Shown: positions 767 through 28,351 of the stretch, piece after piece | Position numbering within the stretch: the stretch's first letter is position 1 | Layout: every line of letters begins with the position of its first letter | Assembly (NCBI RefSeq): GCF_000010625.1 | Contig: NC_010296.1 | Coordinates: 3,330,001 to 3,362,000, forward strand | Direction of reading: 5' to 3' | Origin: Microcystis aeruginosa NIES-843 | Lineage (GTDB): Bacteria; Cyanobacteriota; Cyanobacteriia; Cyanobacteriales; Microcystaceae | Length of the DNA: 32,000 bases | Program-made: the position numbers and the translations under genes | The notes under the pieces: model-generated | The model's database searches: none | Seen by the model: only the letters and a program-made list of their open reading frames with translations | What the model was told of the DNA's origin: nothing

Positions 767-1008
767 CTAGGATTTGCTGAATAAATCTAACAACCTTGTT
801 GGATAAGGTTTTTAGACTTTTTTTCCCTCAAAAAGTGCCGACCATTGGAGTGATTGGGGGGAAAATTCCGGGACTTTTTCCCTGAAAATTAGGTAATTGA
901 CCACCTGAAAATCGGTAAAACCCCACACCCCACCTGCCCCCCCGATGTCGGGGGGGTTGGGGGGGCCACACCCTACCCCCACGAAAAACTTTTTGCCGCA
1001 AACCCTAC
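767..1008 (+). mobile_element. MITE-like dispersed element, copy A (inverted copy at 28127-28351)
   Basis: About 170 bp align by eye to the reverse complement of 28127-28351 (ctagg(a/g)tttgctgaataaatcta...ttgttggataag...ccctgaaaattaggtaattgacc...aaaatcggtaaaaccccacacc). The ends are imperfect inverted repeats (ctaggatttgctgaa ... gcaaaccctac). It has an internal CCCCACA-type heptamer array. Copy A also carries an extra G/C hairpin at 937-956. Confidence 0.6.
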
Positions 1009-2514: not shown

Positions 2515-2650
2515 CCCCATCACCCCATCACCCCATCACCCCATCACCCCATCTCCCCCATCTCCCCCATCACCCCATCACCCCATCACCCCATCACCCC
2601 ATCACCCCATCACCCCACACCCCACACCCCACACCCCACACCCCACACAC
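2515..2650. repeat. C-rich microsatellite: 12 CCCCATCA-type octamer units, then 5 x CCCCACA heptamers (2613-2647)
   Basis: Read directly. The spurious ORF 2359-2688 (PHHPITPS repeats) is just this array translated. Confidence 0.9.
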
Positions 2651-2717
2651 CTTTAGCTAATAGCTGCAAACCAGAGATTGTCCACTAGAATGTTAATCAA
2701 GTTTGGAGACCACCGCC

Positions 2718-9981: not shown

Positions 9982-11427
9982 TTAGGGCAGCCAACGGGGT
10001 TTAAAACCGGCGTTGAGTTCTTGAGGTAAAATTTTCGGGGTGCTATTGGGACTGAATTGATCGGGGAGTGGTAATAACCAGAGACGACCATCGGCAATGC
10101 TCGACCCCTCCCCGGTGACTAAATCATTTCTGACTCCAAAGGGTGTGGTTGCTAACTGATCAAATAATAAGGCCACGCCATCGGGAGACATACTCATCTG
10201 CACGTCACGATAATTAGGTAAGGCCAGCAGGGGGATCATTTTACCCGTTTTTAGCTCAATAATCGCTAAAAATGGTTCTTCTTTCACCTTGCCATCGCTG
10301 CCCATAACCAGATCGCTTTTCAGACAGTAAAGGGTTTTTTCCTGTCGCGGTTCAAATTCACAGCTAATAATCGGATTAGCTGTTCTTAATAGTAGTCTTG
10401 ACTCTCCCTGATCATTGAGCAAAAATAGCGATCGCTGATTATCTGGTTCCGATTTCACCATGAGTTTTTGGCGACCATCCCGGGAAAAAGCGAGTATTTT
10501 CTCGTAGGTAGGCAAAAATTGCGGTTTTCCCCCTTGCACATCCAAAGGAATCACCGCTACCCCTCCCGTTTGACTGACAACCGCTTTTTTACCGTCGGGA
10601 GATAGTAAAAAAATATCCCCTTGTATTCCTAACGGTCGCGATTGTCCATCATCGCTGATTACCCATAAACTGGCATCCCCCGGATTCCCGTGATTGATTC
10701 TCTGCACGATTAGGGTTTTGCCGTTATCTGAGAGATCAAAGCGCAGATTTTGATAGGTTTTCGCATCTAAAAACCTTTCTATACGACCAATGGGCAAATT
10801 TTGACCATTTTCGTCATGATTTAAACCCGTGGTCATCGTGTAAAGTTGCTGTTTCGGGGTGTCTCGTCCTAAGTCAGAGCGATCGAAGGCCGAGAATAAA
10901 ATTCTCTCTCCCCTCGGATAGATTTGAAAATCCGTGACCACCAGATCCGCAGGGGTAAGGATGGTTTTTTTCAGTTCTGTGACGTTATTTGCCCCCTGAA
11001 TGATATTACAGACGATTAAACGACCTCTTTCCTCTTGGTTGACTCCAATATAGGCAAAAGCTCGATCGTGGGTGTAAAATTCCCCGATAAAGTCCTCACC
11101 TTGAGCAATGGGTAACTTTACTTGATATTTTTTGCCGTAGATGGGCAATTCCGTCAAGGTATAGGTCAAGCGATCGCCAGACCAGCTAATTTTACCCGGC
11201 AAGGGAGGATCGATCACCAGTCCGGTTTCTATGTCGGAACGGTCAATCGGTCGATTAAAACTTAAAGTAAAATAATTGTCCCTAACGCCGATTTTTCGTC
11301 CTTGCCAGCTAAAATTCTCCCCTCGGGTAGGAACTTGATTTCCCTGGATCAAAATCGACGATATCCCGGCAATTAAGGCCAAAATAGTCGCTAACACTAA
11401 GCGATCGAACCAAGCTAATCTTTTCAT
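9982..11427 (-). CDS. Membrane-anchored hypothetical protein with Ig-like N-domain and TolB/WD40-like beta-propeller repeats
   Basis: It has an N-terminal TM helix, recurring SPDG/SDNG/SRDG beta-propeller blade motifs, and a long uninterrupted ORF with normal composition. Confidence 0.7.
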   Translation of the reverse strand: MKRLAWFDRLVLATILALIAGISSILIQGNQVPTRGENFSWQGRKIGVRDNYFTLSFNRPIDRSDIETGLVIDPPLPGKISWSGDRLTYTLTELPIYGKKYQVKLPIAQGEDFIGEFYTHDRAFAYIGVNQEERGRLIVCNIIQGANNVTELKKTILTPADLVVTDFQIYPRGERILFSAFDRSDLGRDTPKQQLYTMTTGLNHDENGQNLPIGRIERFLDAKTYQNLRFDLSDNGKTLIVQRINHGNPGDASLWVISDDGQSRPLGIQGDIFLLSPDGKKAVVSQTGGVAVIPLDVQGGKPQFLPTYEKILAFSRDGRQKLMVKSEPDNQRSLFLLNDQGESRLLLRTANPIISCEFEPRQEKTLYCLKSDLVMGSDGKVKEEPFLAIIELKTGKMIPLLALPNYRDVQMSMSPDGVALLFDQLATTPFGVRNDLVTGEGSSIADGRLWLLPLPDQFSPNSTPKILPQELNAGFKPRWLP

Positions 11428-11548
11428 CAGTTATCAGTTATCAGTTATCAGTTATCAGGAGTCAGTCAGGAGTCAGTCAGGAGGCAATAGGCAATAGGCA
11501 ATAGGCAATAGGCAATAGGCAATAGGCAATAGGCAATAGGCAATAGGC
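11428..11548. repeat. Microsatellite block: (CAGTTAT)x4, (CAGGAGTCAGT)-type units, (AGGCAAT) about x9.5
   Basis: Read directly. It begins at the nucleotide adjacent to the ATG (complement 11425-11427) of the 481-aa gene. Confidence 0.9.
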
Positions 11549-11569
11549 AGCTTTATTCTCCCCACACCC

Positions 11570-12354
11570 GTTACAGTAGAGCAGGAAGTCGCCTTCCCAC
11601 CCCCTGCTTCAAAACCGGACTTACGACTTTCGCCGTATCCGGCTCCTGAGTAACTAGGCTACTGTCATTAGTAGAATAATAATGGGAATTATTATTTCCT
11701 TGTCTATTCAACCCTCTTGGCTGTATCCCCACCAGACAAGATTGTTGGTTTTAGGGCGTATATGACCGTTGATTGTTGCTTAGACTTCCTAGTTACCCGT
11801 CCTTTGTCAGCATATCTTTGATATTACTCAAAGCCTTGGCTTTTAAGGACATCCTCTCCCTCTATTGACTTGCGGATGGTTTCCTACTGCCCCGAACGGG
11901 CAGAGTCAATCAGGGTTACTTCGTTCCCTATAACCATTGGTTGAACCCTTAGGATGATACTGTCCACAACAGAGTAACGGGAATGCCTTACTGATAGTGG
12001 TATGAGCTATCAGCCCCAACTCTGTTAACTTTTGTTTCGAGCCTGTCAGCCTTTTGGCTCGTGGGTGTTGACGATGGTTAATTCGTATCTTCGCCCCAGG
12101 GCTATCCATAGGTTCTGGCTCAACGGGTTTCTGATTTAGGCTATCAGATACCGCTTTTTTTTCCTCGCTCACTACCTCAGATGTACCAAGTCTAAAGCAG
12201 CAGGAAATGCCGTCACTCTAGGCATCTAGAGGACAGGACTAAGGTTATTACTAACCCGCACCTGTAGGGTTATAAAGTTATCAAGGTACTACATTTACCA
12301 AGCGGCTAATCCTCTAAACGTCTTACTGTCTAGTTTCTAGCCAACGAATCGCAC
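11570..12354 (-). mobile_element. ORF-less group II intron ribozyme, copy 1 (785 nt)
   Basis: On the minus-strand RNA the 5' end is GUGCGAUUCG (from 12354). A perfect 11-nt GAAA-tetraloop receptor is formed by GAACC-UAUGG (12115-12106) and CCUAAG-GGUUC (11953-11943). The candidate EBS2 is ACACCC (12068-12063). The candidate EBS1 is CAUACC, in the loop of the hairpin CUGAUAG/CUAUCAG (12013-11991). A minimal domain IV hairpin lies at 11675-11696. Domain V is GAGCCGGAUACGGCGAAAGUCGUAAGUCCGGUUU (11645-11612), followed by a domain VI helix GCAGGGGGU/ACUUCCUGC. The 3' end is ...CUACUGUAAC. Confidence 0.85.
11612..11645 (-). ncRNA. Group II intron domain V (copy 1)
   Basis: The element is 34 nt. 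The lower stem GAGCCGGA/UCCGGUUU contains the AGC catalytic triad. There is a 2-nt AG bulge on the 3' strand, and the upper stem UACGGC/GUCGUA is capped by GAAA. This matches the canonical domain V architecture. Confidence 0.9.
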
Positions 12355-12375
12355 CACACCCCACACCCTACACCC
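12355..12375. repeat. 21-nt micro-exon between the two introns, made of three heptamer units (minus strand GGGTGTA GGGTGTG GGGTGTG)
   Basis: Direct reading gives the plus strand cacaccccacaccctacaccc. Confidence 0.85.
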
Positions 12376-13160
12376 GTTACAGTAGAGCAGGAAGTCGCCT
12401 TCCCACCCCCTGCTTCAAAACCGGACTTACGACTTTCGCCGTATCCGGCTCCTGAGTAACTAGGCTACTGTCATTAGTAGAATAATAATGGGAATTATTA
12501 TTTCCTTGTCTATTCAACCCTCTTGGCTGTATCCCCACCAGACAAGATTGTTGGTTTTAGGGCGTATATGACCGTTGATTGTTGCTTAGACTTCCTAGTT
12601 ACCCGTCCTTTGTCAGCATATCTTTGATATTACTCAAAGCCTTGGCTTTTAAGGACATCCTCTCCCTCTATTGACTTGCGGATGGTTTCCTACTGCCCCG
12701 AACGGGCAGAGTCAATCAGGGTTACTTCGTTCCCTATAACCATTGGTTGAACCCTTAGGATGATACTGTCCACAACAGAGTAACGGGAATGCCTTACTGA
12801 TAGTGGTATGAGCTATCAGCCCCAACTCTGTTAACTTTTGTTTCGAGCCTGTCAGCCTTTTGGCTCGTGGGTGTTGACGATGGTTAATTCGTATCTTCGC
12901 CCCAGGGCTATCCATAGGTTCTGGCTCAACGGGTTTCTGATTTAGGCTATCAGATACCGCTTTTTTTTCCTCGCTCACTACCTCAGATGTACCAAGTCTA
13001 AAGCAGCAGGAAATGCCGTCACTCTAGGCATCTAGAGGACAGGACTAAGGTTATTACTAACCCGCACCTGTAGGGTTATAAAGTTATCAAGGTACTACAT
13101 TTACCAAGCGGCTAATCCTCTAAACGTCTTACTGTCTAGTTTCTAGCCAACGAATCGCAC
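12376..13160 (-). mobile_element. ORF-less group II intron ribozyme, copy 2 (785 nt; identical by eye to copy 1, offset 806 bp)
   Basis: It carries the same motifs as copy 1, shifted by +806 (domain V at 12418-12451). The embedded 88-aa ORFs in the two copies are amino-acid identical. Confidence 0.85.
12418..12451 (-). ncRNA. Group II intron domain V (copy 2)
   Basis: It is the same 34-nt sequence as 11612-11645. Confidence 0.9.
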
Positions 13161-13233
13161 CACACCCTACACCCTACACCCCACACCCTACACCCTACAC
13201 CCCACACCCCACACCCCACACCCCACACCCCAC
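13161..13233. repeat. Heptamer microsatellite (CCCTACA/CCCCACA, about 10 units), forming the 5' exon flank of intron copy 2 on the minus strand
   Basis: Read directly. Confidence 0.9.
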
Positions 13234-13737: not shown

Positions 13738-13965
13738 ATGTCCAAACGGTTTAAATTCGACTCCTCCGAGATGATTTATCTCACCGATAAACTGATGAAT
13801 GCGGCCAGCAATCGTTACTCGATCGTCGTGCAAGTCGCTAGACGGGCCAAACGCGTCCGCTACGATACCGTAGAAAATATCGATGACCCGATGATTAAAC
13901 CCGTCCAACGGGCCCTGATGGAAATGACCGACGAATTAACCGAACCGGAATTATTACGCGATTAA
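13738..13965 (+). CDS. rpoZ: DNA-directed RNA polymerase subunit omega
   Basis: The 75-aa protein contains AASNRYSIVVQVARRAKRVRY...PMIKPVQRALMEMTDELTEPE, which closely matches the cyanobacterial RpoZ pattern. Confidence 0.9.
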   Translation: MSKRFKFDSSEMIYLTDKLMNAASNRYSIVVQVARRAKRVRYDTVENIDDPMIKPVQRALMEMTDELTEPELLRD

Positions 13966-27804: not shown

Positions 27805-28126
27805 AGTTGTTCACGGCAAAAGTAGCAAAGGAGAAATTTTCTTAGTTTGCTATTTTTTTAGAGCAGTTATCTTAATGGTGAGGTATAATGTTTTCGGTTT
27901 GGGGATAGGAGAGACAGGAGACGATTCTCAGTCAGATTATACTTCACCTTGATCGAAAATTTGGGTTGAAAACCCCGGCAAAATTTTGCCACCAACCAAC
28001 CCAATCAACCGATCAGATGTTTCCCTTCAACTAATTTCTAAGCGCGAGTAGAGAGTTTCTTCAGGCTAGAAGCTAACCGCTCAATCTTCTTCCTTTGCAA
28101 GGCAAGATAGGAAGATGGAAAATTAG

Positions 28127-28351
28127 TTAGGGTCTGCTGAAAAAGTTTTTCCTAGAAGCAGGGTGTAGGGTGTAGGGTGTAGGGTGTGGGGTGTGGGGTT
28201 TTACCGATTTTGAGGGGGTCAATTACCTAATTTTCAGGGAAAAAGTACCTGAATTTCCCCCTGATCACTCCCATGCCAGGCACTTTTGGATTTCAAAAAG
28301 GTCTAAAAGTCTTATCCAACAAGGTTTTTAGATTTATTCAGCAAACCCTAG
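28127..28351 (-). mobile_element. MITE-like dispersed element, copy B (inverted relative to 767-1008)
   Basis: The terminal inverted repeats are TTAGGGTCTGCTGAA (28127-28141) and TTCAGCAAACCCTAG (28337-28351), which match at 13 of 15 positions when one is reverse-complemented. It has an internal (GGGTGTR) heptamer array at 28161-28198. The body is homologous to copy A. Confidence 0.6.

Follow-up and report, generated by a model that had tools for sequence, protein, structure and literature searches.

An ORF-less group II intron of Microcystis fitted to a heptamer microsatellite, and a tandem pair probably left by two insertions into one array

Group II introns are presumed to have given rise to spliceosomal introns as well as to retrotransposons that lack long terminal repeats (non-LTR retrotransposons), and how such elements multiply without killing their host is a central question. 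Some reside at motifs that are harmless to the host and recur in its genome: class C (IIC) introns insert after intrinsic terminators or in attC sites, and RmInt1 resides in ISRm2011-2. In Bombyx, TRAS1 and SART1 are telomeric-repeat-specific non-LTR retrotransposons, which insert into (TTAGG)n with the help of a protein endonuclease and their own reverse transcriptase (RT). The EcKTE56.groEL intron targets the groEL stop codon (PMC12584367). In cyanobacteria, the TeI3 introns of Thermosynechococcus elongatus, which lack an open reading frame (ORF), are present as identical copies and are mobilised by the RTs of other introns (Mohr, Ghanem & Lambowitz 2010, PMC2882425), and Trichodesmium erythraeum carries ORF-less group II introns as well as a twintron, with trans-encoded factors (Pfreundt & Hess 2015, PMC4649490). 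Here, we describe two identical ORF-less group II introns that lie head-to-tail within a GGGTGTR heptamer array of Microcystis aeruginosa NIES-843, in a 32,000-nt stretch of NC_010296.1 (positions 3,330,001 to 3,362,000; referred to as the window and numbered from its first letter). We consider it likely that they represent a microsatellite-homing ORF-less IIB intron, and that the tandem arose by two retrohoming events into one array.

The Microcystis element resembles TeI3 in that it is a cyanobacterial intron, probably also of type IIB, whose ORF was lost, is present in multiple identical copies located mostly in intergenic regions or repeats, and would recognise its target through pairing of exon-binding sites (EBSs) in the intron with intron-binding sites (IBSs) in the exon. 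In contrast to TeI3, whose helper RTs are known and whose targets are unique (RT ORFs, which gives rise to twintrons, an IS200-type element and single intergenic sites), its target is a heptamer array, which permits side-by-side insertion. With the Trichodesmium introns it shares the lack of an ORF in a cyanobacterial setting, and it would share the dependence on trans-encoded factors, the presence of several introns per transcription unit and the need for sequential splicing when copies abut or are nested; however, the Trichodesmium introns interrupt protein-coding genes, are spliced in vivo and include a nested twintron, whereas the Microcystis copies are adjacent, intergenic and known from DNA. 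Homing to a harmless motif that recurs in the genome is also common to IIC introns, RmInt1 and EcKTE56.groEL, but these use structured motifs or unique sites in a repeated element, not the phased and overlapping targets of a simple repeat. TRAS1 and SART1 offer a functional analogy, as retroelements that sit at a fixed position in a short G-rich repeat unit and accumulate in arrays; they do so with a protein endonuclease and their own RT, whereas the Microcystis intron encodes no protein and would rely on RNA-DNA pairing. A published description of heptamer arrays in Microcystis does not mention introns (PMC4679880), and a literature search, the coverage of which was incomplete and which leaves absence unproven, returned no group II intron that targets a simple-sequence tandem repeat and no account of this Microcystis element. 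What appears to be new is the use of a simple tandem repeat as a group II intron target, while ORF-less trans-mobilised introns and homing to harmless motifs were already known.

Both introns are read on the minus strand and lie in a 2.3-kb intergenic region between a divergent rpoZ-like gene and a 481-aa ORF, within no gene. Copy A (12376..13160) and copy B (11570..12354) are each 785 nt long (GUGCG...CUGUAAC) and identical at 785/785 positions. The array upstream of copy A (13161..13233, minus) has 10 GGGTGTR units (Tandem Repeats Finder: period 7, 10.6 copies) and forms its 5’ exon; the two copies are separated by a spacer of 21 nt (12355..12375, minus) made of the three heptamers GGGTGTA GGGTGTG GGGTGTG; and the 3’ exon of copy B (11556..11569, minus) consists of the last heptamer and the array end (GGGTGTG GGGAGAA), which matches the array end of empty-site orthologues exactly. 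When both introns are removed, the window holds a perfectly phased 14-unit GGGTGTR array terminating in GGGAGAATAAAG. The exact match at period 806 extends over 798 nt (11564-12361 = 12370-13167), which corresponds to one intron together with 6 and 7 nt of the heptamers on its two sides. A twintron reading was rejected, as the two copies are adjacent and each is complete, neither being nested in the other. The initial annotation of this stretch had proposed two identical head-to-tail introns on the minus strand, separated by a 21-nt micro-exon; the pair stands, and the spacer does consist of microsatellite units, but it belongs to an intergenic repeat and not to any gene.

By the RNA features that define the class, and as far as these can be read from sequence, both copies are bona fide group II ribozymes. 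Each gives a full-model match to the Rfam family Intron_gpII (RF00029; 55.0 bits, E 2e-8, against a gathering score of 40 bits), located at 12376-12453 in copy A. The boundaries (5’ GUGCG, 3’ AC) fit the consensus GUGYG / AY, and the first 12 nt of the intron, GTGCGATTCGTT, are invariant across 24 family members. In copy A, domain V (12418..12451, minus; intron nt 710-743) is a 34-nt element that carries the AGC triad, a bulge of two A residues and a GAAA tetraloop, and domain VI (12379..12413, minus; intron nt 748-782) has a GCGA loop and a bulged branch-point A at 12383 (minus; intron nt 778), the eighth base from the 3’ end. A 9-bp AU hairpin (12481..12502, minus; intron nt 659-680) lies in a much shortened domain IV, at the position where relatives hold their RT ORF. 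The corresponding elements of copy B, also on the minus strand, are domain V at 11612-11645, domain VI at 11573-11607, the branch-point A at 11577, EBS2 at 12063-12068 and EBS1 at 11999-12004. Domain I contains an exact 11-nt tetraloop receptor (UAUGG near nt 245 and CCUAAG near nt 402, within a GAACC/GGUUC helix), and from these motifs we infer a zeta-zeta’ contact between the receptor and the GAAA loop of domain V. The minimum free energy (MFE) fold of the whole intron RNA has a z-score of -5.1 relative to shuffled sequences and shows separate helical domains across nt 470-705, between domains I and V. The structural features named by the initial annotation (intron ends, domain V, domain VI branch-point A, receptor and AU hairpin) were all found in the sequence, and the covariance-model check it had proposed was passed for domains V/VI; the Rfam D1-D4 models gave a sub-threshold match (RF01999, D1-D4-2: 26.7 bits against a threshold of 36). 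Each domain IV also contains a sigma-70-like motif, TAGACA N16 CATTAT (12485-12512 and 11679-11706, minus), facing the 481-aa ORF; such motifs are no more numerous in the region than in shuffled sequence, and an outward promoter from domain IV is only hinted at.

The intron belongs to a family with longer members that encode an RT. Domain I in the window is 63.5% identical over 455 nt (E 2e-24) to that of a 2.4-kb intron on the Fremyella diplosiphon plasmid AP018240, whose domain IV contains an ORF annotated as RNA-directed DNA polymerase. In addition, a metagenome scan with the first 22 nt of the intron yielded ~40 further relatives, mostly ~2.5 kb long with an RT of ~600 aa; domain I can be aligned to ~20 metagenomic relatives as well. 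In an RNAalifold covariation analysis, which covered domain I of 24 family sequences, 71 of 101 base pairs show compensatory double changes, and the window intron conforms to this fold. The RTs of the relatives contain RVT_N, RVT_1, GIIM and HNH domains. Among homologues of solved structure, the closest to them is the Thermosynechococcus TeI4h RT (6ME0, E 2e-108), and because of this closeness the family would be placed with the chloroplast-like IIB introns typical of cyanobacteria, a class assignment made by RT similarity alone. The T. elongatus introns are of class IIB1 (PMC2882425). In a 1129-nt relative on the Nostoc sp. UHCC 0926 plasmid pn1 (3501-4629 of L138), part of the RT ORF is still present, with the region of the YADD motif, so that this relative seems to represent an intermediate step of ORF loss within the family.

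How the intron finds its target is suggested by two hypervariable loops of domain I in the family alignment, one located after a conserved CAUCGUNA and the other forming the terminal loop of the d3-equivalent hairpin. In the relatives, the d3 loop (EBS1) pairs with positions -6..-1 of the intron’s own exon at 5.35 of 6 positions, compared with 2.55 for non-cognate exons (p 4e-11), and the first loop (EBS2) pairs with positions -13..-9 at 4.0 of 5 positions, compared with 1.96 (p 1e-8). In the Microcystis intron, EBS1 is CAUACC (12805..12810 in copy A, minus; intron nt 351-356), located in the loop, 9 nt long, that caps the d3 hairpin (12797-12819), and pairs 6/6 with GGUGUG at -6..-1, including one G.U pair; the loop is unpaired in the MFE fold and the stem is backed by covariation. 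EBS2 is ACACCC (12869..12874 in copy A, minus; intron nt 287-292), homologous to the exon-covarying loop of the relatives, and pairs 6/6 with GGGUGU at -14..-9 in the penultimate heptamer. This 6/6 pairing of both loops is found at every junction with G at -1. As judged from these complementarities, EBS1 and EBS2 both read one 7-nt word in two successive units. An alternative register for EBS2, in which CCCAC pairs with GUGGG beside IBS1, was rejected, as it fails where A is present at -8 (copy A and the copy in L123) and does not keep the register seen in the relatives.

For copy A, IBS2 (GGGUGU, -14..-9) and IBS1 (GGUGUG, -6..-1) are provided by the last two units of the upstream array, while the spacer serves as the 3’ exon of copy A and at the same time holds the full IBS2 and IBS1 of copy B. 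As it contains these sites together with a 3’ exon for copy A that starts with G, each copy appears equipped for its own splicing and, if the minus strand is transcribed, each could splice independently, restoring the continuous 14-unit array. Since two successive GGGTGTR units plus GGG make up one target, about n-1 in-register targets are available in an array of n units. With the heptamer array acting as homing site for both EBS1 and EBS2, most of the oddity of the tandem arrangement is gone: as the guide sequences are matched to a 7-base repeat with many landing sites, two introns can lie side by side in an intergenic region. The initial annotation had the composition of the spacer right and missed this role as an intron homing site. 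The (GGGTGTG)n sequence on the intron-receiving strand (13161-13233, 12355-12375 and other arrays) also fits the G3-N4-G3 pattern of G-quadruplexes, and a role of such structures in exposing the target is speculation. Elsewhere in the window, a composite array at 2540-2660 (minus), composed of GGGGTGT x5, GGGGTGA x6 and then GGGGGAGAT units, contains three perfect unoccupied intron targets and overlaps a 109-aa ORF (2359-2688, plus) that is probably spurious.

The same rule holds for the other copies of the intron. Besides the two in the window, copies are present at at least 11 loci, as distinguished by their flanks, all on Microcystis-type contigs and 98.6-100% identical. Seven public contigs (L121-L127), on which an 88-aa ORF inside the intron is annotated as a protein-coding gene, each hold the intron at 99.7-100% identity, and a further seven Microcystis-type copies, 98.6-100% identical, came from the metagenome scan. 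In eight copies from different loci and samples, the 785-nt sequence is 100% identical. Every junction has the form ...GGGTGTR GGGTGT(G/A) before the intron and GGG(T/A)G... after it, on the G-rich strand and in one register, with a 3’ exon that starts with G. Some of the host arrays have just 3-4 units, and two complete units precede the intron in all of them. Several near-identical copies at EBS-matching sites are what characterises a trans-mobilised ORF-less intron. Some copies are decaying: in one (L142, 12470-14652), an element carrying a transposase-like ORF interrupts the intron at nt 140, and in another (L151, 3295-4700, and L179), a 1.2-kb insertion that contains a 165-aa ORF splits it at nt 115.

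Empty sites are equally precise. A look-up with the rpoZ-like protein identified the same locus in ten other Microcystis assemblies, and the intron is absent and the array continuous in 10/10 of them. In L203 and L195, the empty site reads ...AAGAAAGTGGGAAGT G GGGTGTA GGGTGTA GGGTGTG GGGTGTA GGGTGTG GGGTGTG GGGTGTG GGGTGTG GGGAGAATAAAGCTGCCTATTG..., and the array end A,G,G,G(,G) followed by GGGAGAATAAAG (units named by their last base) equals the window without 11570..13160, array length aside. The order of units in the tail of these intron-free orthologous arrays (A,G,G,G and then GGGAGAAT) is that of the window spacer plus the last unit. Other strains have shorter arrays or a different heptamer (GGGGACG) at this locus. 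The introns are polymorphic in their presence, with precise empty sites, in keeping with the very recent event suggested in the initial annotation. Closest to the window is AP019314.1, the chromosome of M. aeruginosa NIES-102 (L128), which encodes the 481-aa ORF identically; 14 substitutions (0.12%) and one 21-nt gap set it apart from the window across 11.4 kb, an identity of 99.7%. As the presence of the introns is polymorphic within the species and the flanks of the closest assembly differ by 0.12%, the insertion is probably recent.

A further set of empty and filled sites is provided by a dispersed repeat of ~160-230 bp, seen in the window at 28124-28350 (plus) and, as a partial second copy, at 768-930 (minus). 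The repeat at 28124-28350 begins with an intron-free array of five GGGTGTR units (28161-28195), followed by GGGTTTTACCGATTTTGAGGGGGTCAATTACC..., while the homologous repeat copies in L155 and L124 hold the 785-nt intron exactly inside the array. Copies of the repeat elsewhere (L124, L155, L141 and L142) are 86-93% identical, some with and some without the intron, and the repeat looks like an element of the miniature inverted-repeat transposable element type that could spread intron targets. The idea that the heptamer arrays are themselves part of the mobile unit was discarded, because intron-free arrays are common and empty sites differ by exactly 785 nt.

In the proposed model, the ORF-less intron would be a deletion derivative of an RT-encoding cyanobacterial lineage that has become multi-copy in Microcystis. 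The ancestral array between rpoZ and the 481-aa ORF would have been hit twice, 21 nt (three units) apart, each insertion proceeding by reverse splicing and reverse transcription with an RT supplied from elsewhere in the genome. The spacer would be what is left of the ancestral array, and the outcome would be two identical head-to-tail introns. Alternatively, a single insertion could have been followed by an 806-bp duplication of ‘intron + 3 units’ at the DNA level, through unequal crossing-over or slippage between the flanking arrays. Such an event would account for copies that are 100% identical and for a spacer whose length is exactly divisible by 7. Arrays at the locus clearly grow and shrink from strain to strain, a single copy was seen there in none of the 12 assemblies compared, and Microcystis has been described as highly repeat-rich and plastic (PMC4679880). 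However, a fresh duplication should leave an identity at period 806 of at least 806 nt, whereas 798 nt are seen, with a heptamer mismatch on each side. If the copy at site B had been duplicated, the upstream array should end in A,G,G like the spacer, but it ends in A,A,G; if the copy at site A had been, the downstream array should read A,G,G,G, but a single G unit is observed. At least one additional change within ~27 nt of array would have to be assumed, while 1570 nt of intron remained unchanged, and the spacer plus the last unit match the tail of the intron-free orthologous arrays, as expected if the array was hit twice. We prefer two insertions because the period-806 identity covers 798 and not 806 nt, and because no further event is needed; since arrays mutate fast, we still regard duplication as an unlikely alternative, though the main one.

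Several observations weigh against two retrohoming events as we picture them. In NIES-102 (L128, 3289-4858), the outer arrays are the same as in the window, but the two copies abut with a 0-nt spacer (...CTGTAAC directly followed by GTGCG...), an outcome that lies outside the prediction of the simple two-hit model. This may reflect a long-read consensus error, a real deletion, or homing of an intron into the boundary between the 5’ exon and a resident copy. The last of these is conceivable because the related TeI4h RT showed no selection on 3’ exon positions (Mohr et al., PMC2882425), and possible because IBS2 and IBS1 are both retained at that boundary and the first base of the resident intron is the G that is usual for a 3’ exon. 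With respect to the guide loops, the G at -1 is replaced by A in 3 of 14 distinct 5’ junctions, which creates a C.A mismatch with EBS1, and the gap between IBS2 and IBS1 is 2 nt, wider than in a textbook IIB intron, although the relatives are spaced alike. Perfect 17-nt targets number 17 in the window (all registers) and 35 across the 102 kb of Microcystis DNA from other loci and are mostly empty, and the 13161..13233 array alone has 8 further unoccupied matches; as perfect targets are plentiful yet mostly empty, mobility would be rare or need more than the 17-nt motif. Finally, no RT-encoding parent with this 5’ end was present among the Microcystis-type contigs in the metagenome scan with the 5’ 22-mer, and tblastn of the family RT on other Microcystis loci found none near any intron copy.

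The disagreement of the two assemblies on the spacer (21 nt or 0 nt) also bears on whether a single intron was expanded to two during assembly. Identical 785-bp repeats within a microsatellite are hard to assemble, and no tandem occurs in any short-read contig. Two complete copies are nonetheless present both in the window and in AP019314.1, which differ by 14 substitutions in 11.4 kb and the latter of which was assembled from long reads with Canu and polished (PMC6930136); because two distinct assemblies both have two copies, we regard an artefact as highly improbable.

An RT would have to act in trans, as none is encoded in the intron or nearby. No match to the family RT was obtained by tblastn across the 32 kb of the window (E<=1e-5), and Pfam scans of 20 window ORFs, including every ORF of at least 200 aa, detected no RT domain, in agreement with the initial annotation, which had also foreseen that gene callers would report the 88-aa ORFs, as they do on the seven public contigs. 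These ORFs (11906-12172 and 12712-12978, minus) are the longest in the introns, lie inside domain I, have no Pfam or family match and are spurious, being ribozyme sequence, whereas relatives hold a ~600-aa RT at the aligned position; their recurrent annotation as genes can nevertheless be used to locate further copies. An RT/maturase ORF in domain IV, the mark of an autonomous mobile group II intron, is accordingly absent. No ORF exists across the intron-intron junction, and a 53-aa intron ORF is absent from public records. The best 120 matches to the Fremyella RT in a homologue search all belong to Nostocales/Oscillatoriales and include no Microcystis, nor does Microcystis appear among the matches listed or the top genera of a plasmid protein search for the RT. 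A scan of viral contigs with the 3’ end of the intron gave no match, and a genome-contig scan with a degenerate domain V pattern gave no close relative among the matches listed, which were unrelated introns from many phyla. Candidate helper RTs do exist in the species, since seven group II RTs have been reported for M. aeruginosa NIES-843, six of them near-identical and fused to an HNH-type domain (PMC8934634).

That no RT partner was found in the searches of Microcystis loci would also fit a view of the copies as dead relics or co-opted DNA, for example a spacer or promoter-bearing insert in front of the 481-aa ORF, with their identity due to gene conversion or recent descent. Most targets are empty, the copies in L142 and L151 are disrupted by insertions, and each domain IV contains the weak sigma-70-like motif mentioned above. 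In addition, the orientation relative to neighbouring genes is inconsistent, and in L125/L126 the intron is antisense to both neighbours, so that many copies may never be sense-transcribed. On the other hand, the catalytic and tertiary motifs are all intact, eight copies are 100% identical over 785 nt while the dispersed repeats that host some of them are just 86-93% identical, and promoter-like motifs are no commoner than in shuffled sequence. The locus is also polymorphic for the introns within the species, with flanks in the closest assembly that differ by 0.12% (substitutions only). We therefore hold this explanation to be improbable, somewhat more so than duplication, and retain homing of the intron into heptamer arrays as the likely account.

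A bolder version of retrohoming into arrays is that of an active protein-less lineage specialised on a G-rich, G-quadruplex-type heptamer haven, which even homes into its own 5’ junction to form abutting concatemers; on the present evidence, this is a tentative proposal that we would not favour. If true, it would provide a bacterial, RNA-guided counterpart of the eukaryotic repeat-specific retrotransposons and a route by which introns pile up in non-coding DNA, and concatemers such as that suggested by the 0-nt spacer of NIES-102 would have to splice in 5’-to-3’ order, as the downstream of two abutting introns could splice only once the upstream one has done so. Even without this extension, the element would be a clean natural case of an intron retargeted to a sequence that is harmless, highly repetitive and hypervariable, and would account for the way in which introns can end up in tandem. 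For Microcystis, a bloom-forming and toxic cyanobacterium, it represents a so far unannotated repeat class, miscalled as an 88-aa hypothetical protein, that contributes to structural differences between strains and to breaks in assemblies. The fundamental view of group II introns is unchanged, and the finding is of use for annotation; given a matching RT, the small size (785 nt) and predictable target could make the intron a possible model or tool.

With regard to the surroundings of the pair, the rpoZ-like gene (RNA_pol_Rpb6; 13738..13965, plus) is transcribed away from the introns, while the 481-aa ORF (9982..11427, minus; no Pfam match) shares their strand, its ATG at 11427 lying 143 nt past copy B. 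Promoter and terminator scans of the region gave nothing above the shuffle background except for a hairpin with a T-run at 13314-13286 (minus). This terminator-like hairpin (AAAAACGC...GCGTTTTT), located between the rpoZ upstream region and the heptamer array, is bidirectional, with a T-run on the plus strand as well and, if functional on the minus strand, would limit read-through into the introns. The 143 nt between copy B and the ATG are made up almost entirely of further short tandem arrays (11426..11549, minus; CCTATTG x9.7, the 11-nt CTGACTCCTGA x2.6 and TAACTGA-type x4.7), of which the TAACTGA-type repeats directly precede the ATG and the CTGACTCCTGA and CCTATTG arrays are found further upstream. 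TAACTGA repeats upstream of start codons have been described in Microcystis (MacGregor 2015, PMC4679880). The arrays at this locus differ between strains in both length and unit, with ~45 copies of CCTATTG in L204, and GGGGACG and CCCTAAAT in L197/L201.

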